From assembly GCA_964442745.1 (NCBI GenBank), contig CAYUAI010000011.1:4873-68872 (forward strand): a stretch of 64,000 nucleotides of DNA. The letters run 5' to 3'. The DNA is from an uncultured Chromatiales bacterium (GTDB lineage: Bacteria; Pseudomonadota; Gammaproteobacteria; S012-40). This document shows positions 12,496 through 24,238 of this stretch, in pieces. Below the pieces are notes generated by a model. It was not told where the DNA came from. It did not search any database and saw only the letters and a program-made list of their open reading frames with translations. The stretch's first letter is position 1. Every line of letters begins with the position of its first letter. The position numbers and the translations under genes are program-made.

Positions 12496-14214
12496 ATGTC
12501 ATCAGATAGTTTCGATATTTTTAGACTATGGCCAAATTTTAGTAGCCTATTCGATTCACAAGCTTTTGGAACAGAAGCCTTTAGTGCGTTGATTGTCGCT
12601 ATACTGTTTGCGATTTTCATTATATTTTCAACATACAGTCTTGTGCAATATTTTAGAGCAAATAAACACATAAAATTACTCTCAAAACTTATTGATAATC
12701 CATCAGGAGAGATACATCACCAAAGACGGCTCTTAAAAAAACAAGCGATAAAAAAAGGCAACATGGGCAAACTCTGGCTGGAATTTGATGGCACGTTAGT
12801 TGAGCACCCTATTGACAAAAAACCTTGCAATACTTTAAATGCCTCTCATTTTTTTAATGCGCATTCACTCGCACCTGGCATCACCGAGAATCGTTTGTTA
12901 GCCGCCGTTCCTGGTTTCCTAACAGCATTAGGCGTCATCGGCACCTTTGCTGGTTTACAAATGGGACTAACGGGAATCAATCTTAGCGGTAGTGTTAACG
13001 ATATGAGAACGGGTATCACGACCGTTATTGATAGCGCATCAATAGCCTTTTTAACTTCGGTATGGGGCATCTTAACGAGCGTTGTATTCAACCTTTATGA
13101 AAAAATACTCGAACGAAGGATTAAAGATAAAATTCGTCAACTGCAAAATAAAATCGATTTTCTCTTTCCTCGAATCAATGCCGAGCAATCACTGATAGCT
13201 ATCGCTAATTCAGCCGAAGCTTCACAGGATACTTTAAATGGTTTAGCGGAAAAAATCGGTGACAAAATGCAAGAAGCTGTTTCGGGTATTAGCTCAGGTA
13301 TTCAGTATGGTATTGAACAGAGCATGGGCTCTGCCGTAGACAAGTTAGTCGTCGCGGCTGATCAGTTATCAGACAAACAAGCGGGTGGAACACAACACGC
13401 ATTAGAAGAATTGGTCGCTAAATTTATCACCCATGTTAGTGAAGCTGGTAAATCCCAACGTGACATAATGAACAGTGCAACTTCTGATTTTAAAGCAACA
13501 ATTAAAGGTTGGCAAGGTAACATGCAAACATTAGCAGATCATATGGAAAGCCAACAATCATCATCAGCTCAACAAGAACAGTCACGTATTGAATCCATGC
13601 AAACGATGCTCAATCAGAATAGCCGCTTATATGAGTCCTTTGAAAACATAGCCGACAAGTTATCTAATGCTTCGAGTATATTGAATGATTTTTCTAAACA
13701 AGTTGTGACAGCAACCAGCCATATGGGACAGGCAGGCATGAGTGTTGAACAAGCCGCTAAAGCCATGAATAATGAAATACGTGTGGCCGTGCAAACTACT
13801 ACGCACCTGGCTGAAGAAAATACTAAAGTGGCTCAACAAGAAGTCGCGCTACTCGAAGTGATTAATGAACTAAATACCCAACTTTCATCCACCTCAGACA
13901 ATGTTTCTAAATTCATGAATCTTTCTGGCACAATATTTGAAAAAATGCAAGACTCTCAAGTATCTTTCCAGCAAAGTATGGAACAAAATGTCACAAACTA
14001 TAGAACGTCTATCCATCAGCAAATTGAAGAATTTAGCAAGAAGGTCTCTGGGTTTTTACATCAATATACTCAAGAGGTTGAATCACAGACATCAAGCCGA
14101 TTGGGTACCTGGAATAAACAAACGGAAGATTACAGCAAATCCATGATTAATGTTGTCAATGCAATGCAGTGTCTCATTGATGAAGTTGAATCTAAAACGA
14201 AAGCGGTGGCCTAA
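12496..14214 (+). CDS. zorA: ZorA-like protein: MotA/ExbB-family proton-channel membrane domain with a long C-terminal coiled-coil tail (Zorya anti-phage system component A)
   Basis: Three TM helices including the MotA/ExbB-like LAAVPGFLTALGVIGTFAGLQMGL segment, then about 370 aa of low-complexity predicted helix (Q/S/E-rich). GGGAG RBS; tightly coupled (3-bp gap) to a MotB-like gene. Confidence 0.7.
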   Translation: MSSDSFDIFRLWPNFSSLFDSQAFGTEAFSALIVAILFAIFIIFSTYSLVQYFRANKHIKLLSKLIDNPSGEIHHQRRLLKKQAIKKGNMGKLWLEFDGTLVEHPIDKKPCNTLNASHFFNAHSLAPGITENRLLAAVPGFLTALGVIGTFAGLQMGLTGINLSGSVNDMRTGITTVIDSASIAFLTSVWGILTSVVFNLYEKILERRIKDKIRQLQNKIDFLFPRINAEQSLIAIANSAEASQDTLNGLAEKIGDKMQEAVSGISSGIQYGIEQSMGSAVDKLVVAADQLSDKQAGGTQHALEELVAKFITHVSEAGKSQRDIMNSATSDFKATIKGWQGNMQTLADHMESQQSSSAQQEQSRIESMQTMLNQNSRLYESFENIADKLSNASSILNDFSKQVVTATSHMGQAGMSVEQAAKAMNNEIRVAVQTTTHLAEENTKVAQQEVALLEVINELNTQLSSTSDNVSKFMNLSGTIFEKMQDSQVSFQQSMEQNVTNYRTSIHQQIEEFSKKVSGFLHQYTQEVESQTSSRLGTWNKQTEDYSKSMINVVNAMQCLIDEVESKTKAVA

Positions 14215-14217
14215 ATT

Positions 14218-14946
14218 ATGGCATCATTTAATCAAAATGTACCATCAAAAGTTGATGAAGAAAACCCGTATTGGATATCATTCTCCGATATCATGGCCGG
14301 TCTATTGGTTATCTTTATTTTAGCTACGCTGCAATTGATTATAGAATTATCAGAACAACAAGATAAAGTGGAAACAGCCATTAATGAAGTGAAACGTGCT
14401 AATCAAGTGAAAAGTGAAATTTTACATGAAGTGAAGTTAGCGCTGGATAAAGCTGGGATAACGGTTGAAATTAGTGATAATACAGCCATTATCCATATTC
14501 CGAGAAATACCTTGACATTTCCTAATAACAGCGCACGTATCCCCACAGAACAAAAGAACGATATAAAAATTATTGGTGAGATATTATATACATCGATAGT
14601 ACAAAACAATCGTGATCAGTATATTGACACAATTTTTATTGAAGGTCATACCGATAGCCGCAGATCTCATTATAAAGGCACTGGAAATTGGGGATTATCA
14701 GCAGATCGAGCCATATCAATATGGCGATTCTGGGAAAGCGAGCAGAGCACACAATCATTGTGGATGTTAAATAATTTTCGTGGAGAAAAAATGTTTTCCG
14801 TCAGTGGCTATGCCGCAACCCGACTCTTGAGTCACCATAATGAGACTGAAGAGCAACATGAAAAAAATCGACGCATTGATATTCGCTTTACAATGAAACA
14901 GCCAAAATTAATTGACTTTGAAAATATCAATCAAATATTAAAATAA
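14218..14946 (+). CDS. zorB: ZorB-like protein: MotB-like membrane anchor with an OmpA-like peptidoglycan-binding domain
   Basis: N-terminal TM with the conserved Asp (WISFSDIMAGLLVIFIL) typical of the MotB/ExbD plug-TM. C-terminal OmpA-like motif (IEGHTDS...GNWGLSADRA). Confidence 0.75.
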   Translation: MASFNQNVPSKVDEENPYWISFSDIMAGLLVIFILATLQLIIELSEQQDKVETAINEVKRANQVKSEILHEVKLALDKAGITVEISDNTAIIHIPRNTLTFPNNSARIPTEQKNDIKIIGEILYTSIVQNNRDQYIDTIFIEGHTDSRRSHYKGTGNWGLSADRAISIWRFWESEQSTQSLWMLNNFRGEKMFSVSGYAATRLLSHHNETEEQHEKNRRIDIRFTMKQPKLIDFENINQILK

Positions 14947-14949
14947 TCC

Positions 14950-16452
14950 ATGATAAAAATTCCTACCATCAATATCAATTTTACGAATATCGTAACCGAT
15001 AATAGCCAGCTACTTTACCAGTCAATGACCAGCCATTTAAATACCATTGCAGGTTTGTCTGGCAGTACTTCTGACATATTTTCCCAAAGCTGTGAAAAAA
15101 TTCGTTCCATCGCGTTTGCTGAAGACACAAATATTATTGACGCGCTGCATATCCCGCGAGACATACGCGCTATTATTCAACTTTGGCGTACCGATGACGA
15201 TTTTTTAGAAAAGAAAAAAGTAAGTTCATCCATTCTCAGTCATTTTCGTACGATTAGAAAAAAACAAAGTATCATTGCTTTTTATGCACTGGTGCAATTG
15301 TATTTTGAAAAATATGATGAATGTGGTGATATCAATCGTTTATCAAATTTTTTACACGAAGAGTTTACACGACAAGAGGGTCGATCGCTATCAACAGAGA
15401 TGGAAAAAATTGCGGAGCATAAAGATTTTATATTTTGCAATAATAGTCATGAAGCCGTTGTTGCATTAGCTAATCAACGACAACAAAGTCTAGATGATGC
15501 ATTACAATCGATTGGTGTTAACATTTCAAGGGAAAGTCGTTTTTCACAGCAATGTATGGCTCAATACTATATTGATACCTTAAAAAAATTACACCCACAT
15601 GAGGACACCCAGCTATTCCAAGAAATAACTCAGCCACGAATTTATAATAGTCCCTATGGTGAAGGAACACGCTTGGGACATAAAATAATCCAAGCGATTA
15701 TCGACAACGTTAAAGATAACGGTTTTGAGATTCCTGAGATATGGCTACAAGCCATTATAACCATTGCTGGTGATCCAAGAGTACCTATCTCATCAAAATC
15801 CTATCAAACATGGTGGATGATTCTTCCCAAGTATTGTGATCGAATGATTCGTCAATGGTTAAGCCGTGTTGACTTAGCCTTGTTTTTTGAGGTACTCGAA
15901 GAACATGCAAATCGCAGCAGCAATATGGAATTGCAACGAATGTATCCTGCGCGAAAGATTTTTTTAGAAGGGCTTTATAAACAAAATTTAATCAGTTATT
16001 CAAAGCTTTTCATTGGTAATAGCGCCGTTAAATTTTTAAAGGAAAACTACAATCAAGAACAATTACCCGTATATTACACGCTAAAAGATCGTGACAAATC
16101 CATTATTTATCTTAACATCAATGGAATACATATTGTCGAGGGATCACATAATTTTTGTTTCTGGATCTATGATAAATTACCTGATGATAACCCCATTGAT
16201 AATGATTTTTCTGAAAATATAGCACCCATTGATCTGAGCGGAAATTTAAAAAAACGCTATAAGATGATGTTGCATTATAATAGCAGTTATGTCAACAATC
16301 CGTTTCCTTTACAGATAAGGCATCAGCCACATCTAACTTGGCAACATAAAGTGATTCAAGGATTGCAAGGTTTAGACATACCTATTAAAGTCGAAGAGAT
16401 GTTTTCCAGTACTGATTACCGTGATTACCAACGTTGCTATGGACGATATTGA
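14950..16452 (+). CDS. zorC: ZorC-like protein (soluble, no recognizable domain; position and size match Zorya type I ZorC)
   Basis: 500-aa ORF with its start 3 bp after the zorB stop. Assigned by operon context only. Confidence 0.5.
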   Translation: MIKIPTININFTNIVTDNSQLLYQSMTSHLNTIAGLSGSTSDIFSQSCEKIRSIAFAEDTNIIDALHIPRDIRAIIQLWRTDDDFLEKKKVSSSILSHFRTIRKKQSIIAFYALVQLYFEKYDECGDINRLSNFLHEEFTRQEGRSLSTEMEKIAEHKDFIFCNNSHEAVVALANQRQQSLDDALQSIGVNISRESRFSQQCMAQYYIDTLKKLHPHEDTQLFQEITQPRIYNSPYGEGTRLGHKIIQAIIDNVKDNGFEIPEIWLQAIITIAGDPRVPISSKSYQTWWMILPKYCDRMIRQWLSRVDLALFFEVLEEHANRSSNMELQRMYPARKIFLEGLYKQNLISYSKLFIGNSAVKFLKENYNQEQLPVYYTLKDRDKSIIYLNINGIHIVEGSHNFCFWIYDKLPDDNPIDNDFSENIAPIDLSGNLKKRYKMMLHYNSSYVNNPFPLQIRHQPHLTWQHKVIQGLQGLDIPIKVEEMFSSTDYRDYQRCYGRY

Positions 16453-16454
16453 CA

Positions 16455-19400
16455 ATGGCTATTTGGGATATTATAAAATCAATCGTTGGTAATAATTCTC
16501 AGGAAACCTTATTTTCTATTGAACCTGATACTCACGGCCTATCTTTAGTATTGCCAACTGACTTGATGGATCATTGTCAATTGGGCTCGGCAAGTCCTTG
16601 GTTACTAAATCAGTTTATTCATTTACAAATGCTGACAGAAGAAGGCATTGCTGAGCCGCGTGAGAGTGGATTTTTTATTTTCACCGAAGAAGCTGTCAGA
16701 CTAGAGAATGATCTTAAATATCTATTGCAATTCCCACCACCGTGGCCGGGACAATTTAATGTCAGCTATAAAAATCACACCACCTCCAATGGCTTTGATA
16801 TCGCATTACAGCTCATTGATACCGATGGTGAAAAAACGGAATGCTATCAGGTAAAAGGTCCTCTGATTATCCTCGCTGAGACCGAAATCTACTTACCAAG
16901 CATCGAGCAATGGATAGCGATTGAGGCAATAGAAAAGCACAAAATGCTATCGACAAATGAGCGCAGCGAGTATGCTAATCTACTCGCCATCGACCAATTG
17001 CAGCAAGCTAAACAAGCCGGTGCGACAATAAATCTCAGGCATTTTAACGATATTGATACGCTAAACCCTAAGCAGATCACCGTATCTGGATTGACTCGTG
17101 ATAATGGTGATCTTGAACTGGTGCCTACATTTGACGGACTAACGGATATTGATGCCATTCGAACTCGATTGTGGCAAGTGACGGACGGTCATCAAGCCAC
17201 CAGTATTCGTGTTAAAAACAAAATTGTCTTGCTTAATGAAAAAAAACTGAAAGCGACTCAAGAAATAATCAATCACAACATTATCCCCAAGGAACAAATA
17301 GCAACTTTTCTCAAAACACCTTCTGCCTTTTTAAATGCCGCACTGGTTGATCTCGACTCAGGTTTTTCATTGCGTGTGTTAGGTGCCACGAAATTTAAAC
17401 ATGCTTATTTTGGGGATACCGATGAGGCAAATATTGACTGGTTTTCCAGCAAATATGAAAATACCTCGATCATCATGCCGAATAAACTTGAGAGTATCAT
17501 CAAATCAGAAGATGAGTTAACCCAGTTTAATCAACTTTTAGTCGATGCACAACAAAGTGGTGCAGAACAAATCGTTTTTAAAAAACATACCGTCGATGTG
17601 AGTGACACCCAGGCAATCCAACAGGCCATCATTGATATTTCCGAACAATTAAATGCCCGGCAGGATGAAAAACATGAGGCAGATGAGGTAGAAGAGACAG
17701 CAAGTGAATTTGTTACCACCGTGGTTGATATCAAAGATAATGATTTAGAAGTTAATTTTGGAAAAAACAATAACTCGATACAAGCATCTTATGAGGATGA
17801 TATTGACTGGAAACGTTATAAGCGCACGCCTTTCCATTATCAGGAAACGGGAATTCGTTGGATCTTGGGGTTGGCCGAGCCATCATTGAATGAAGTGACT
17901 AATCAATACGGTGGACTACTCGCCGATGACATGGGTCTTGGCAAAACATTTATGTCATTAGTCGCGATTAGTGAATATCAATCTTTATTAAAAAAGAAAG
18001 CCATGACTGAATGTCCAGTGCTTGTTGTTGCGCCTTTATCTTTATTAGCGACTTGGCAAAAAGAGGCCGAATTAACCTATCATGACAGTCCCTTTGATGA
18101 CATCGTGGTACTACAATCCAACGCTGACTTAAATCAATTCAAAGTGACGGGTGCTAGCATTGAAACGCATCAAGCGAAAGAGACTGATTTAGACAACATT
18201 CGATATGCGCTAAAAGTAGGTAGCCACTATGGAAACAATCGGCTTGACCAACCTAGACGATTAATATTAACCACTTACCAAGCCATGAGAGATTACCAGT
18301 TTTCGCTTTGTCGAATTGACTGGTCGATGGTCATATTTGATGAAGCACAATTGATTAAAAACCCAAATACATTAGCTTCGCGAGCAGCGAAAGCGTTAAA
18401 AGCAAAATTCAAACTCGTGGCCACTGGCACGCCCGTAGAAAACAGTCTCTGTGATTTTTGGTGTTTAATGGATACCGCAATACCCGGCTTGCTTGGTTCT
18501 TACCAAGATTTTCGCAAGACTTATGTGCAACCCATATTATCGGCTAAAGATGATCAACGGCAACGCAAAGAACAAATTGGTAAACAATTACGCCAACATG
18601 TGGGTGCATTTATGTTACGTCGAATTAAAGAAGATCAACTCGAAGGTTTACCCACCAAAACAATCTATGTCGGTGATCGCGAAGCGATGGGTACGGAAAA
18701 ATATATGCCTGAGATTTATTGTACAATGCAGTCAGAACAACATCAGCGTTATGATACCGTAGTTTCTTATGTGAATGAGCAACAAATGGAAACCAGTGGA
18801 AATGTTGTTTTACAAGGATTACATCGTTTACGGGATCTTTCGTTACACCCCAAATTAATGGATCAAGGTAAGTTGCTTCCACCGACAAATCGCAAGGAAG
18901 CAAAGCAATCAATTGAACAATCAGCTAAATTAAAACATGTATTTAAACTTTTAGAACAAGTTAAAGAAAGAGATGAGAAAGTGATTATATTTCTCATTAA
19001 CAAGCGATTACAGGCTTTTTTGAAAGTGGCTTGTGAGCGTATCTTTGATATTACTGTGGCAATCATTAATGGTGACACTCAAGCCATCGCTAAAAAATCG
19101 TCTACTGAAACCCGTCAATCCATGATTCAAGCGTTCGAGAAAAAAACTGGATTTGGTATCATTATTATGTCACCCGTAGCCGCAGGAATGGGTTTAACTG
19201 TGGTCGCCGCTAATAATGTGATTCATTTGGAAAGACATTGGAATCCTGCCAAAGAGGCTCAAGCCACCGACAGAGTATATCGCATCGGTCAAACACGTGC
19301 GGTTAACGTTTACCTACCCATTCTTCAACATCCTGATCTAAACATTAACTCCTTTGATGTCAACTTGAATCGTCTGTTAAACCAAAAATGTGCGCTAAAA

Positions 19401-19931
19401 GATGCCATCATTACACCCGAAACTGCCACCGGATCAGAGATGTCGGTAACGTTTGGTCACGGCGTCAAGCAAGCGATAACAACAAAGTTTAACAGAGAAA
19501 ATCTCACGCAACTGACTTGGCAACAATTTGAAGCACTGACCGCTGAACTATTAGCCAAGTCTTATACTGGAGAAGCTCAACTGACGCAACAAGGTGCCGA
19601 CGGCGGAATTGATGTGGTTATACGTAGCAAAACCAAAAATCTATTGGTTCAATGTAAACACACTTCACGCAACAAAAAAATGCGTTCGCAAGAGGCTCTC
19701 AAAGAACTGGTTTATGCACGAACTCATTATAATAAAGCGTTTAATCAAGAATTTGATACTTTAGTATTCGTCACTAATGCCAAGAATTTTTCAACCAAGG
19801 TAAAAAGTGCAGCCAATCAGCACGAAATAACATTGATCGATTTAATCAGTTTATCCAAATTGCTTGATGAATACCCAGTGACAGAGCGTGACATTCTTAC
19901 TCGACTCGACAAACCACGTCTTGCTATCTAA
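16455..19931 (+). CDS. zorD: ZorD-like protein: large SNF2-family helicase/ATPase with a C-terminal Mrr-type PD-(D/E)xK restriction-endonuclease domain. An alternative start at 16434 overlaps zorC.
   Basis: SNF2 N-domain motifs (LLADDMGLGKT, DEAQ box in MVIFDEAQLIKN, TGTPVEN) and helicase-C motifs (QATDRVYRIGQTR). The last about 120 aa match the Mrr catalytic core (GADGGIDVV...LLVQCKH...VFVTN). Confidence 0.7.
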   Translation: MAIWDIIKSIVGNNSQETLFSIEPDTHGLSLVLPTDLMDHCQLGSASPWLLNQFIHLQMLTEEGIAEPRESGFFIFTEEAVRLENDLKYLLQFPPPWPGQFNVSYKNHTTSNGFDIALQLIDTDGEKTECYQVKGPLIILAETEIYLPSIEQWIAIEAIEKHKMLSTNERSEYANLLAIDQLQQAKQAGATINLRHFNDIDTLNPKQITVSGLTRDNGDLELVPTFDGLTDIDAIRTRLWQVTDGHQATSIRVKNKIVLLNEKKLKATQEIINHNIIPKEQIATFLKTPSAFLNAALVDLDSGFSLRVLGATKFKHAYFGDTDEANIDWFSSKYENTSIIMPNKLESIIKSEDELTQFNQLLVDAQQSGAEQIVFKKHTVDVSDTQAIQQAIIDISEQLNARQDEKHEADEVEETASEFVTTVVDIKDNDLEVNFGKNNNSIQASYEDDIDWKRYKRTPFHYQETGIRWILGLAEPSLNEVTNQYGGLLADDMGLGKTFMSLVAISEYQSLLKKKAMTECPVLVVAPLSLLATWQKEAELTYHDSPFDDIVVLQSNADLNQFKVTGASIETHQAKETDLDNIRYALKVGSHYGNNRLDQPRRLILTTYQAMRDYQFSLCRIDWSMVIFDEAQLIKNPNTLASRAAKALKAKFKLVATGTPVENSLCDFWCLMDTAIPGLLGSYQDFRKTYVQPILSAKDDQRQRKEQIGKQLRQHVGAFMLRRIKEDQLEGLPTKTIYVGDREAMGTEKYMPEIYCTMQSEQHQRYDTVVSYVNEQQMETSGNVVLQGLHRLRDLSLHPKLMDQGKLLPPTNRKEAKQSIEQSAKLKHVFKLLEQVKERDEKVIIFLINKRLQAFLKVACERIFDITVAIINGDTQAIAKKSSTETRQSMIQAFEKKTGFGIIIMSPVAAGMGLTVVAANNVIHLERHWNPAKEAQATDRVYRIGQTRAVNVYLPILQHPDLNINSFDVNLNRLLNQKCALKDAIITPETATGSEMSVTFGHGVKQAITTKFNRENLTQLTWQQFEALTAELLAKSYTGEAQLTQQGADGGIDVVIRSKTKNLLVQCKHTSRNKKMRSQEALKELVYARTHYNKAFNQEFDTLVFVTNAKNFSTKVKSAANQHEITLIDLISLSKLLDEYPVTERDILTRLDKPRLAI

Positions 19932-20012: not shown

Positions 20013-20290
20013 GGTAAGTTTAAACTGATTTCAGGAAAAATAAACTCGTAGGGTGGATTAAGCGCAGCGAATCCACCCTAAACCCGCCTCGAAAACAAAT
20101 CAATTCCCCCTGGCATTATTCTCATTTCAATGGCCGATTTGAGCATGATGACGTCGCTCATGGTGGAGTGGATTCGCTACGCTTAATCCACACGACATGG
20201 ATAAAAAAAGAGGAAGCGATATTTTTTAATGATTTTTTTGTAAAAAAACGGCATAAAATAACTTTCCCTCTGAAAGCAGTTTAAACTTAC
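20013..20290. mobile_element. MITE-like non-autonomous element (family 1, copy A, about 278 bp)
   Basis: Terminal inverted repeats GGTAAGTTTAAACTGATTTCAGG and CTGAAAGCAGTTTAAACTTAC. Two internal REP-like hairpins in opposite orientation. No ORF. Confidence 0.5.
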
Positions 20291-20438: not shown

Positions 20439-20726
20439 TCATGTGTATTCTCTCGAAAAATAAGTCAGTGGATCAATCACATTGATGCCATTTTTATCGT
20501 AAGAATGTTTTAGATTGGCAACAATTTGGGTGGCGCGTTTAGGTTTAAGGCGTTGGGCATAATATTGAAGTGATTTTGAAAGTGTATCATCACCATACTT
20601 AACTTCGATTAGCTCTTCAATTACGCCTTCTTTAACAATCACAAAATTAACCTCGATAGCATTCGCCAAATCTCGTTGGCTAATTTCCAATGGAAGAAGA
20701 AACTCTTTAGTGATAATCAGTAATTT
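20439..20726 (-). pseudogene. 3' fragment of a DUF4143-type AAA+ ATPase gene (5' end missing)
   Basis: The C-terminal pattern EVNFVIVKEG..IEVKYGDD...SL.YYAQRL...IVANLKHSYDKNGINVIDPLTYF matches the DUF4143 C-terminus. The frame is closed upstream by a stop at 20727, with no N-terminal ATPase core. Confidence 0.45.
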
Positions 20727-20871
20727 CTACATCAAATGGGCCGGATTCACTCCACTTAAAGTAAACCCGATATTGAACATTAATTCTTATATTAAATTCA
20801 TCTTTTCTATCACCAGATAAGCTCTCAAAGCGATTCCCCGGTGGCACTTTAAGTTCGTCTAAATTTAGCAT
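20707..20871 (-). pseudogene. higB: Truncated higB-like toxin gene (HigB/'plasmid maintenance system killer' family), last about 54 codons only
   Basis: Minus-strand translation gives MLNLDELKVPPGNRFESLSGDRKDEFNIRINVQYRVYFKWSESGPFDVEITDYH*, the conserved C-terminal half of HigB. An in-frame TAA lies immediately upstream, and the missing N-terminal region is occupied by MITE copy B. Confidence 0.55.
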
Positions 20872-21080: not shown

Positions 21081-21746
21081 TAACACTGGGCATGACCACC
21101 AGCGCTAACGCCACCCCGATTGATCAACTGATTGATCGGGGCAACGGCATGATCTACGACACGCATGAGGATTTGACCTGGCTACAGGATGCCAACTACG
21201 CCCAGACCAGTGGTCTATGATGCCGATGGCCGCATGAACTGGAGTACAGCTACAGACTGGGCAGCTGGCTTGAGTTACGGTGGTTATGACGACTGGCGTT
21301 TGGCCAACGTGACCGACGATGGTAATAATAGCTGTGACTGGGACTACAGTGGCACTGATTGTGGTTACAACGTCGATACCTCCAGTTCTGAACTGGCTTA
21401 CATGTGGTACGACATTCTGGGTAACACACCGTATTCCGACACCAGTGGCAATAGTTCGCAGAGTGGTTGGGGCTTAACTTCTACCTCTGCCGATGGGGTT
21501 GACATTCTGAATCTTCAGCCCTTCCGTTATTGGTCGGGTACGGAGTATGCGTCCATTCCCAATCGCGAGTGGGACTTCCTTACCTGCAATGGCGACCAGA
21601 GCCACCTCAATAAGAATGGTGCGGACTATGCGTGGGCTGTTCGCTCCGGTGATGTCGCCGCTATTGCAGTGCCTGAACCTGGCACCTTCTTGTTGCTGGC
21701 CGTCGGTTTGGCCGGTATTTCAGGTACTAAACAGCGGCGTTGCTGA
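21056..21746 (+). pseudogene. PEP-CTERM-anchored DUF1566 (Lcl C-terminal domain-like) secreted protein, apparently frameshifted near 21200-21225. The ORF track gives only the 21189..21746 portion.
   Basis: The frame from ATG 21056 encodes a signal peptide (MWIRSALILTLGMTTSANA) and the DUF1566-like DLTWLQDANYAQTSG, then stops at 21218-21220. The +1 frame continues with MNWSTATDWAAGL...DDWRLANV and ends in a PEP-CTERM sorting signal (VPEPGTFLLLAVGLAGISGTKQRR). The first 8 codons derive from the REP hairpin of MITE B. Confidence 0.45.
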
Positions 21747-21839
21747 TTGCTTTGACCCTTAGAGGGGGAGCAGGGGGAGCCTTCCCCCTGCTCATGCCCG
21801 ATAGGGCATGACGGATTTTTTTTACACTGAGTCTGGTTT

Positions 21840-22085
21840 ATGGCACGTTACGAACATCTGCCAATTTACAAACAAGCCATGGACGTGGCTGTGTACTTTG
21901 AAAAAGTGGTGGCGGGTTTTTCCCGCTATCACAAATACACCCTTGGCACTGAGCTGCGCAACAAAAGCCGCGAAGTAGTAACGTTGATCGTCAAGGCCAA
22001 TGGTGAGCGTAATAAACGACCACTGTTGCTGGAATTGCGCGCTTGTTTGGATGAGCTATTGATGCTGGTTCGTTTAGCGATTTAA
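21840..22085 (+). CDS. Hypothetical small protein, possibly a four-helix-bundle (23S rRNA IVS protein-like) family member
   Basis: 81 aa. The helix pattern LPIYKQAMDVAVYFEKVV...FSRYHKYTLGTELRNKSREVV loosely resembles TIGR02436-like proteins. Weak. Confidence 0.3.
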   Translation: MARYEHLPIYKQAMDVAVYFEKVVAGFSRYHKYTLGTELRNKSREVVTLIVKANGERNKRPLLLELRACLDELLMLVRLAI

Positions 22086-22118: not shown

Positions 22119-22616
22119 TTATTCTTCTAAAGGGTAAGTTATACTACTGCTATGGTCCGCACCATCTGCTGATTTAAATAAAATTGTTATGAAATAGTTG
22201 TCTTCTACCCCTAGATCATAACCAGCCAAATACCAATCACCTAGTTCCATCATTGTTTTTGATTTTGTCGCCCCGTTTAGGTGAGCGACTTTAGCAATGA
22301 CTGATAAATTATGTTGTGCTCGACCATTGCGTTTAATGTTGACCAATAAATTGTGACTACCACCATCGGCCACGCTATCTTTTGCATCAACAACCTTTAA
22401 TTTAAAATCAAGATCACCGATTATTTTTTTTTGAATCAATGTCCCATGTATTTCATTTTCATCGGTGGTATTTTTTATTTGTTGATCGCTCACAACGTTG
22501 GCGCTATGCTCTTGAGGCTTAGTGAAACTCCCCGCCCCCCCGTGGTTACCACCCGCCATCGCCAAAGACATACTGATGGCAAAAAAAACACCTAAATACC
22601 AGATACTAAGCTTCAT
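22119..22616 (-). CDS. Hypothetical secreted protein
   Basis: Signal peptide MKLSIWYLGVFFAISMSLAMA. No confident domain. Confidence 0.45.
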   Translation of the reverse strand: MKLSIWYLGVFFAISMSLAMAGGNHGGAGSFTKPQEHSANVVSDQQIKNTTDENEIHGTLIQKKIIGDLDFKLKVVDAKDSVADGGSHNLLVNIKRNGRAQHNLSVIAKVAHLNGATKSKTMMELGDWYLAGYDLGVEDNYFITILFKSADGADHSSSITYPLEE

Positions 22617-22969: not shown

Positions 22970-24238
22970 TCAAAACCCCCGTAGTTGCATGGCTTGATTA
23001 ACCCGTCCAATCGCTAGCTCATAGGCGGCAGTACGCCTGTCAACCTGGCGCTCCTGCGCTAGCGCACCTACGGTTTGATAAGCATGAAAAAGTCGATTTT
23101 CTAAACGCTTCAAGACAGTTTCACGATCCCAGGGAAACTGCTGAAGGTTTTGCACCCACTCATAATAAGAAACCAATACACCGCCCACGTTAGCCAACAA
23201 ATCCGGCACAATGACAACGCCACGTTGTTGCAATTGCTCATCCGCTTGGTGAGTTATCGGCATATTCGCCGCTTCCACAATCAGCTTGGCCTGAATCGCT
23301 TCCGCATTGTCACAGGTAATGCTCGCCTCCAGTGCCGCAGGAATCAGTATTTCACAGGAAAGTCCAAGCAATTCGGTGTTACTCACTGGCGAAGTGCCAA
23401 CCAATCCTGACAATCCACCCGTCTCACGTACATGCGCTAAAGCAACCGCCACCGAAATCCCCTGCTCAGAAAAAACACCTCCCTGGGAGCCTGAGAGTGC
23501 GATAATTTTATAGCCCTTGTTAGCCAAACCAATGGCTGCGTGAGAGCCTACGTTACCAAACCCGTGAATCACTACCCGGCTCTGCTCGGGGATGAGTGAC
23601 ATTTCTGCGGCGGCTTTGTCGGCCAGGTAGGCAACGCCATAGCCGGTTGCCTCCAACCTCCCGGCACAACCACCGAGCTCTACCGGTTTTCCCGTCACGA
23701 TGGCCGTTCTAAAGCCGTGATTTTTACTGTATTCATCTAGCATCCACGCCATTACCTGTGGGTTGGTACCGATATCCGGAGCAAGAATATCATCATGCAC
23801 CCCGATAATAGGTGCCATTTTTTGGCAGAACCGCTTGGAAAGCTCCTCCCGCTCGGTATCATTCAAGTGCTTCGGATCAACGGCAATCCCCCCTTTGGCC
23901 CCTCCGAAGGGAATATCAACTAACGCTGTTTTCCAGGTCATCAATTGTGCCAGCGCCCGTATCTCACCCATGTTGACATCAATATGAAAACGTAGCCCCC
24001 CTTTGAACGGTCCACGGGCATGATTGTGTTGCACACGGTAACCCTGAAAGGTGTGGAGCTTATTTTCACCATTGTGTCTCAGGGTGACGGGCACCGTAAT
24101 CCGCATCTCCCGAAACGACGACAGCAGCAACGTTTGCTGCGCTTCCTGCAGCTTAAGGCAATCAAATGCCCGATTGAGAAAATGGTGCTGGGTTTCCTGA
24201 CAGATACATTTTTTATTCATTAAATTCGGCTCCCCCAC
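22970..24238 (-). CDS. gdh: Glu/Leu/Phe/Val dehydrogenase family, probable NAD(P)-dependent glutamate dehydrogenase
   Basis: GGAKGG catalytic-lysine motif (FGGAKGGIAVDP) and a Rossmann GFGNVG motif. Size about 420 aa. Confidence 0.85.
   Translation of the reverse strand: MGEPNLMNKKCICQETQHHFLNRAFDCLKLQEAQQTLLLSSFREMRITVPVTLRHNGENKLHTFQGYRVQHNHARGPFKGGLRFHIDVNMGEIRALAQLMTWKTALVDIPFGGAKGGIAVDPKHLNDTEREELSKRFCQKMAPIIGVHDDILAPDIGTNPQVMAWMLDEYSKNHGFRTAIVTGKPVELGGCAGRLEATGYGVAYLADKAAAEMSLIPEQSRVVIHGFGNVGSHAAIGLANKGYKIIALSGSQGGVFSEQGISVAVALAHVRETGGLSGLVGTSPVSNTELLGLSCEILIPAALEASITCDNAEAIQAKLIVEAANMPITHQADEQLQQRGVVIVPDLLANVGGVLVSYYEWVQNLQQFPWDRETVLKRLENRLFHAYQTVGALAQERQVDRRTAAYELAIGRVNQAMQLRGF

Follow-up and report, generated by a model that had tools for sequence, protein, structure and literature searches.

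An Mrr-type nuclease domain at the C terminus of ZorD in a type I Zorya operon from an uncultured Chromatiales bacterium

In the Zorya defence system of Escherichia coli, nuclease activity maps to residues 503-1080 of ZorD (EcZorD), the half that contains the SNF2 motor, and requires its ATPase residues (PMC11946911). In vitro this half degrades plasmid DNA as well as phage DNA, and defence needs the DEAQ box (PMC11946911). The same paper makes no mention of Mrr, and a paper on another defence helicase, HmaA, lists ZorD as Snf2-rel_dom and Helicase_C only (PMC11232893). Annotation gives a different picture, since all ZorD models in PADLOC carry the label “SWI2/SNF2 helicase, Mrr-like nuclease”, and a passage in PMC11890865 credits the Mrr-like nuclease domain in ZorD to prior work, its reference 2, which is the original Zorya report. 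Here we describe a ZorD encoded in a stretch of 64,000 nucleotides (“the window”) from contig CAYUAI010000011.1 of an uncultured Chromatiales bacterium. As judged by profile matches and structure prediction, its C-terminal tail is an intact Mrr-type PD-(D/E)xK nuclease domain with a predicted active site of the form E...D...QxK. As a discovery this amounts to little, the architecture being already in the defence-system databases. Of more interest is the gap between annotation and experiment, in that every structural or biochemical study of ZorD that we found used an E. coli protein, which lacks Mrr.

An earlier note on this DNA had proposed, from the letters alone, a C-terminal Mrr-type module in a ZorD-like SNF2 protein, and had quoted three motifs from it. 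Both the module and the motifs (GADGGIDVV, LLVQCKH and VFVTN) could be located. Pfam Mrr_cat (PF04471) matches residues 1025-1143 with E=6.8e-17 and a score of 62.1 bits (cut-off 21), and the match takes in profile positions 2-114 of 115 (residues are numbered throughout on the 1165-residue maximal open reading frame (ORF), 16434..19931 on the forward strand, which starts with TTG). The check that the note had suggested, a profile comparison of the C-terminal region with PF04471, gave E=3.6e-18 and 66.2 bits on the isolated tail, to which Mrr_cat_2 matched as well. PF04471 is already present in the precomputed Pfam annotation of an identical database protein (P0001), and the alignments to PADLOC models PDLC00630, PDLC00631 and PDLC00628 extend across the Mrr part.

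Searches of the PDB by sequence alone, using the tail with phmmer or a 44-sequence profile, returned no meaningful match, and the fold was therefore shown by structure prediction and Foldseek. An AlphaFold2 (AF2) model of residues 1005-1165, built from a 44-sequence alignment, has a mean predicted local distance difference test score (pLDDT) of 93.3 and a predicted template modelling score (pTM) of 0.87. It shows the canonical alpha-beta-beta-beta-alpha-beta core in the order helix 25-39, strands 43-47, 57-60 and 65-71, helix 83-99 and strand 105-110 (model numbering). The best Foldseek match in the PDB is MspJI (E=6.7e-6), with the Mrr-like AF1548 at E=3.8e-5; further matches include EcoT38I, AspBHI, EndoMS/NucS, the Avs4 nuclease, Hjc resolvases and LlaBIII (4xqk).

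Conservation was judged on the 120 proteins closest to the window ZorD (42-51% identity), which come from Vibrio, Photobacterium, Shewanella, Pseudoalteromonas, Nitrosococcus, Desulfobacter and many metagenomes. The module is present in 104 of these, and the remaining 16 stop right after the motor. Among the 104 fused homologues, D1060 and K1075 are invariant, E1033 is retained in 103, and position 1073 is Q in 99 and E in 4. D1056 (103 of 104), Y1099 (104 of 104) and N1115 are conserved too. The modules of the homologues are only ~27-44% identical to that of the window (43-sequence subset), and that these residues are held despite such divergence indicates selection on an active site. Two full-length homologues, P0029 and P0091, carry no PF04471 annotation; both score just above the cut-off, and the idea that full-length homologues without the annotation are domain-less was rejected, with only one protein, P0039, being truly degenerate.

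That the match reflects chance similarity, or that an assembly error or frameshift joined two genes, has a negligible probability. The sequence does come from metagenome assemblies, which raises the latter as a general possibility only. However, full profile coverage at the above E-value together with a high-confidence nuclease fold argue against chance, while an identical 1158-residue protein on 7 contigs and a continuous architecture in 104 homologues, from isolates and metagenomes alike, argue against an artefact. Both are excluded by these four lines taken together.

In a wider search, a profile of the ZorD-type Mrr domain matched 740 cluster representatives at E<=1e-10, and 145 newly returned proteins among the best 150 were inspected. 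In all 145 the module is C-terminal, lying within ~40 residues of the end (within 10 in 117). A helicase part lies upstream in 96: 59 full-length proteins have the SNF2 motor, and 37 fragments retain a portion of it. The other 49 are short proteins (81-392 residues; within the set P0121-P0265) with no detectable helicase part, and may be ZorD fragments from contig edges or separate Mrr genes.

The rest of the protein is that of a ZorD. The earlier note gave its length as 1165 residues, which is right for the maximal ORF from TTG 16434, though the real start is probably ATG 16455 (M8), giving 1158 residues, because that is where both the gene call in the database and the alignment of homologues begin. 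The TTG start overlaps the end of zorC by 19 nucleotides, and the ATG lies 3 nucleotides past the zorC stop. The identical protein P0001 begins at the ATG, and the four of its loci displayed, from four different samples, all have zorABC upstream. From sequence, the SNF2 ATPase motifs GLGKT, DEAQ and motif VI are intact, so the note's reading of a helicase-nuclease fusion with a recognisable nuclease holds, with SNF2 motifs and an Mrr core in one chain and the predicted catalytic residues in place. Pfam ResIII matches the motor as well. The linker between motor and nuclease, ~30 residues long and flexible, has pLDDT 55-68 in the full-length AF2 model (blocks 981-1010, numbered on 1158 residues), and the tail beyond the nuclease core carries an RL.K.R motif that is conserved among homologues.

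The full-length model (pLDDT 83.5, pTM 0.61) finds EcZorD (PDB ID: 8qy7) as its best Foldseek match, with E=7.6e-50 over ~1035 columns, compared to ~1e-26 over ~550 columns for other SNF2 ATPases; the longer match means that the N-terminal domain is ZorD-like as well. The template modelling scores of 0.39/0.49 to 8qy7 suggest either that the domains are arranged differently or that the model is uncertain. The features of the locus are collected in Table 1.

Table 1. Genes, domains and motifs of the zorABCD locus (nucleotide positions in the window; residues on the 1165-residue ORF).
Feature	Position	Strand	Description	Evidence
zorA	12496..14214	+	572 residues; MotA/ExbB-like membrane motor subunit, coiled-coil tail	PADLOC ZorA1 PDLC00601, 527 bits
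zorB	14218..14946	+	242 residues; MotB/OmpA-like peptidoglycan-binding subunit	PADLOC ZorB1 PDLC00608, 295.7 bits; Pfam OmpA, E=1.2e-12
zorC	14950..16452	+	500 residues; EH-signature protein	Pfam EH_Signature, E=3e-56; PADLOC ZorC1, 395 bits
zorD	16455..19931	+	1158 residues from ATG 16455 (probable start)	PADLOC ZorD PDLC00627, 1282.6 bits
ZorD N-terminal domain	16455..17798	+	residues 8-455	PADLOC ZorD model covers from residue 8
SNF2 ATPase motor	17838..19289	+	SNF2-rel_dom, residues 469-807; Helicase_C, residues 832-952	Pfam, E=9.9e-46 and E=8.5e-13
Walker A GLGKT	17934-17948	+	residues 501-505; motif in SNF2 motor	
DEAQ box	18339-18350	+	residues 636-639	aligns with DEAQ of E. coli-type ZorD
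Motif VI QATDRVYRIGQ	19260-19292	+	residues 943-953; SNF2 motor	
Variable linker, motor to nuclease	19407..19505	+	residues 992-1024	poorly conserved, indel-rich across 120 homologues
Mrr_cat PD-(D/E)xK nuclease core	19506..19862	+	residues 1025-1143	Pfam PF04471
E1033	19530-19532	+	predicted catalytic; helix 1	
GADGGIDVV	19593-19619	+	residues 1054-1062; Mrr motif	
D1060	19611-19613	+	predicted catalytic; start of strand 2	
LLVQCKH	19641-19661	+	residues 1070-1076; Mrr motif	
Q1073	19650-19652	+	predicted catalytic; strand 3, QxK	
K1075	19656-19658	+	predicted catalytic; strand 3, QxK	
VFVTN	19764-19778	+	residues 1111-1115; Mrr motif	
Helical C-terminal tail after nuclease core	19863..19928	+	residues 1144-1165	helices 133-142 and 147-155 of domain model, pLDDT 88-97

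By its gene content the locus is a complete type I Zorya operon, with ZorD encoded by the last gene; all four genes lie on the same strand with 2-3 nucleotides between neighbours. The best PADLOC model for ZorD aligns residues 8-1007 with model positions 1-1003 of 1006, and seven more ZorD models match at 394-769 bits. For ZorA, the NCBIfam model antiphage_ZorA_2 gives 349.8 bits against a cut-off of 100, and the Pfam MotA_ExbB match is weak. The window ZorA fits this ZorA_2 subfamily and not the ZorA1 equivalog, where its 51 bits fall short of the cut-off of 750. At 572 residues it is also shorter than the 729 residues of ZorA in an E. coli-type operon (L005:633-2822), leaving a much shorter predicted cytoplasmic tail.

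The protein that has been studied experimentally, ZorD of E. coli NCTC 9026 (PDB IDs: 8qy7, 8qyc; PMC11946911), shares its operon position, N-terminal domain and SNF2 motor with the window ZorD. A phmmer comparison of 8qy7 with the window ZorD gives E=1.4e-79 over window residues 423-991. However, EcZorD has 1080 residues, the alignment stops at its residue 1061, and the ~19 residues beyond the motor leave it without an Mrr module. A second E. coli-type ZorD was obtained by tblastn on plasmids (L005:5255-8500; annotated by NCBI as the ZorD equivalog) and is similar in this respect, with 1082 residues, SNF2 and Helicase_C domains and no Mrr_cat match. Its motor is 38% identical to that of the window ZorD, and the N-terminal domains are related by a weak BLASTP match (E=7e-4). 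The earlier note's view that the module is no hallmark of reference E. coli ZorD is thus borne out by both proteins. When searched as DNA against every complete E. coli genome, the motor-plus-Mrr region gave no match. The plasmid protein is also matched end to end by PADLOC PDLC02854 at 2416.6 bits, compared to 1554.7 for the best ZorD-labelled model; PDLC02854 is labelled “DpdE”, a label that looks inconsistent.

What is not supported in the earlier note is the view of the module as an unusual feature. The PADLOC labels, PMC11890865 and the 104 of 120 homologues that carry it all make ZorD with Mrr the usual, already annotated architecture, of which the window protein is a divergent member: apart from the identical P0001, no relative is more than 51% identical to it, and no subtype is defined by the module. 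The note's suggestion that the module could mark a distinct subtype is likewise not supported, although the lineage does differ from that of the E. coli equivalog. The NCBIfam ZorD equivalog model, NF041790, gives the window ZorD 366.9 bits against a cut-off of 1500 (residues 311-962 on positions 428-1035 of 1035), so that it is not a member; this model stops at the motor, without any Mrr part. The module itself, however, is found on both sides of the divide.

The two sides were seen in trees. In a neighbour-joining tree without bootstrap (932 columns; N-terminal domain and motor), the 16 proteins without Mrr are split into three separate groups that nest among those with it. A second tree, on the motor core (491 columns, 200 bootstraps), includes loci L010-L019, which were drawn from at least 80 loci matched by generic SNF2 peptide patterns; most of the 80 listed are unrelated SNF2 helicases, and six of L010-L019 fall in ZorD clades. 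In this tree E. coli-type ZorD groups with Mrr-bearing ZorDs from Polaromonas, Pararobbsia, a Rhodocyclaceae metagenome-assembled genome (MAG) and a Methylococcales MAG with 100% support, and the clade of the window ZorD is separate, also with 100% support. The zorABCD operons were verified for Polaromonas, Pararobbsia and the Rhodocyclaceae MAG, and PDLC00632 is the best ZorD model for the Pararobbsia, Rhodocyclaceae and E. coli-type proteins alike. Mrr-bearing ZorDs thus occur in both of the deep ZorD clades sampled. On these trees the window ZorD belongs to a sister lineage of the E. coli equivalog, and Mrr presence is not what separates the two. The fusion appears old and possibly ancestral, and the Mrr-less ZorDs, that of E. 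coli included, look like repeated losses. A recent origin of the fusion was considered and rejected, the Mrr part having the same GC content as the operon (38.4% and 38.5%) in an old and widespread fusion.

We consider it likely that this ZorD is the effector of a type I Zorya in which an N-terminal domain and a SNF2 translocase are linked to an Mrr nuclease, that the fusion is probably ancestral, and that DNA would be cut by a nuclease tethered to a motor. The architecture, fold, active-site conservation, ATPase motifs and operon context are established, and the mechanism is inferred by analogy. If the system works as described for E. coli (PMC11946911), the ZorA5B2 membrane motor would sense the envelope perturbation caused by a phage, and activated ZorAB would recruit ZorC, which binds DNA, along with ZorD. 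The SNF2 motor might then load onto the incoming DNA and translocate, as in motor-nuclease enzymes and HmaA, and the tethered Mrr domain could make a metal-dependent cut locally in that DNA. HmaA, a Snf2 helicase with a C-terminal PD-(D/E)xK domain, requires its nickase activity for defence (PMC11232893). Until recruitment the Mrr domain is probably kept inactive, though this is conjecture.

Several points weigh against this proposal. EcZorD defends without Mrr, its SNF2 half reportedly degrading DNA itself, and for this reason the module is not universally required; its repeated loss and P0039 point in the same direction. P0039 (1170 residues) is the sole fused homologue with a degenerate site, where the glutamate of helix 1 is replaced by alanine and QxK by RxK; it has no Pfam Mrr_cat match even though the domain aligns throughout, and may represent decay before loss. 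The order of loss and gain is a parsimony argument from neighbour-joining trees of a limited sample. At its pTM of 0.61 the full-length model is too uncertain to show how the domains pack or whether the Mrr site is covered, which is why autoinhibition is put forward as conjecture. Finally, we found no biochemical or genetic (active-site) test of any ZorD Mrr module in the literature searched.

One rival reading is that the Mrr module is accessory or vestigial, with the SNF2-containing part degrading DNA and the Mrr fold doing no more than binding DNA or regulating as an appendage. For EcZorD, residues 503-1080 do degrade DNA in vitro without Mrr and the E. coli system does defend (PMC11946911). 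Likewise 16 of the 120 close homologues do without the module, two of them fully checked and found in intact zorABCD operons, and P0039 has a degenerate active site. We nevertheless regard this as unlikely. Catalytic residues retained in 99-104 of 104 proteins whose modules have diverged to ~27-44% identity are the pattern of an active enzyme and not of a vestige or of a domain that only binds, and HmaA needs its C-terminal PD-(D/E)xK domain (PMC11232893).

The Mrr-less relatives were also examined for a module encoded separately. No separate Mrr gene follows zorD in the two full operons, and a split Mrr gene in the Mrr-less relatives was rejected on the basis of these two zorABCD operons. In two Mrr-less Zorya loci, zorD is directly followed by genes of other defence systems that bear nucleases: McrBC and a PLD-SNF2 protein in one (L007:10197-16556), and a helicase with DUF559 / MTES_1575 domains and methyltransferases in the other (L008:10078-13428). 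Another Mrr-less homologue, P0069 (L009:5887-8922), has no zorABC upstream and has two-component sensor genes on the other strand, and appears to be an orphan zorD.

A different possibility is that the Mrr module acts as a suicide effector without discrimination, cutting host and phage DNA alike once Zorya is triggered, so that defence would be by abortive infection and not by degrading phage DNA directly and locally. Assays suggest that a type I Zorya damages host DNA (PMC11890865), a like fold is the effector domain in Avs4 (by Foldseek) and in Argonaute-associated REase-TIR proteins (by PADLOC), and no target-recognition domain, Mrr_N for example, can be recognised in the module. We think this quite improbable, since defence was found to be direct and non-abortive with ZorD recruited locally to activated ZorAB (PMC11946911), and the tether to a translocase suggests cutting of the DNA that is being tracked. 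Sequence does not tell a direct from an abortive mode.

Coming back to a motor-tethered nuclease, a stronger version would hold that Mrr is both the ancestral and the principal DNA-cutting device of type I Zorya, the E. coli form being derived by loss. This is a real possibility, though we lean somewhat away from it. If true, the published mechanism, in which the SNF2-containing half of EcZorD degrades DNA, would be a special case, and defence by Mrr-bearing systems would rest on D1060 and K1075, giving an effector that is cleaner than the E. coli one and open to direct test. Most of the relatives sampled carry the nuclease with a strictly conserved active site, and some papers list ZorD as helicase-only. 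An Mrr-bearing ZorD would reveal which part cuts DNA and whether the activity of the SNF2 half holds across the family.

The GC content of zorABCD (38.5%) is below that of the whole window (42.3%), and the flanks are of housekeeping type, with SoxA/TsdA cytochromes and a SulP transporter upstream and glutamate dehydrogenase downstream; in precomputed annotation of an identical contig (L001), the ORFs upstream of zorA belong to cytochrome and sulfate-transporter families only. Low GC and such flanks suit a small island that was acquired better than a large defence island. A scan of zorABCD for promoters and terminators found none above shuffled expectation. Some 120 nucleotides past the zorD stop, at 20049-20080, lies a perfect 11-bp inverted repeat, TAGGGTGGATT...AATCCACCCTA, present as a single copy in the window; it has no T-run, and the scan consequently calls no terminator there. 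Just downstream of zorD, the region 20439-20871 on the reverse strand holds a 54-residue ORF that matches only positions 41-86 of 91 of a HigB-like toxin profile (E=2e-10), followed by an 83-residue ORF with no Pfam match, and looks like a truncated toxin-antitoxin remnant. At 21189-22085 on the forward strand an Lcl_C / PEP-CTERM protein of 185 residues is followed by an 81-residue bAvd-like ORF below the Pfam cut-off (31.7 against 40), which could be the remnant of a diversity-generating retroelement. Among the ORFs after it we found no reverse transcriptase (22119-22616 is without a match, and 22970-24238 is glutamate dehydrogenase).

Compared with known systems, the window ZorD is closest to the ZorDs of type I Zorya as modelled by PADLOC, having the same operon and the same three parts and differing in sequence only; in the operon as a whole, the difference lies in the shorter ZorA noted above. 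With E. coli Mrr and the MspJI-type Type IV enzymes the tail has the catalytic fold and a D...QxK-type active site in common. Those enzymes, however, have an N-terminal reader of modified DNA, whereas here a helicase carries the core as an addition: no Mrr_N or SRA-like reader domain has a Pfam match in the window ZorD, and motor and linker precede the core.

A similar covalent union of a double-stranded DNA translocase with a PD-(D/E)xK nuclease is found in the Type ISP enzymes LlaBIII and LlaGI and in Type III Res. In Type ISP an N-terminal Mrr-family nuclease is joined to a superfamily 2 (SF2) translocase, and in Type III Res an SF2 motor is followed by a C-terminal PD-(D/E)xK domain. Both types have a methyltransferase and target recognition, and the window protein and operon have neither; no methyltransferase domain was found in ZorD or among the ORFs tested between 12496 and 29816. 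Discrimination of self from non-self would here come from ZorAB signalling rather than from DNA modification.

The nearest tested precedent for the working of a helicase-nuclease fusion is HmaA of the Hma system from Halomonas meridiana, likewise a defence Snf2 helicase with a C-terminal PD-(D/E)xK domain (PMC11232893). The two are distinct in detail. The nuclease of HmaA is NOV_C (PF13020) and not Mrr_cat, with no NOV_C match in the window ZorD, and the PADLOC HmaA model matches the window ZorD in the helicase C-lobe only (40.6 bits). HmaA acts alone or with HmaBC, having no ZorAB motor and no ZorD N-terminal domain, whereas the neighbours of the window ZorD are zorABC. Defence by HmaA depends on its nuclease residues as well as on its helicase motifs, and plasmid DNA is nicked by its tail in isolation (PMC11232893).

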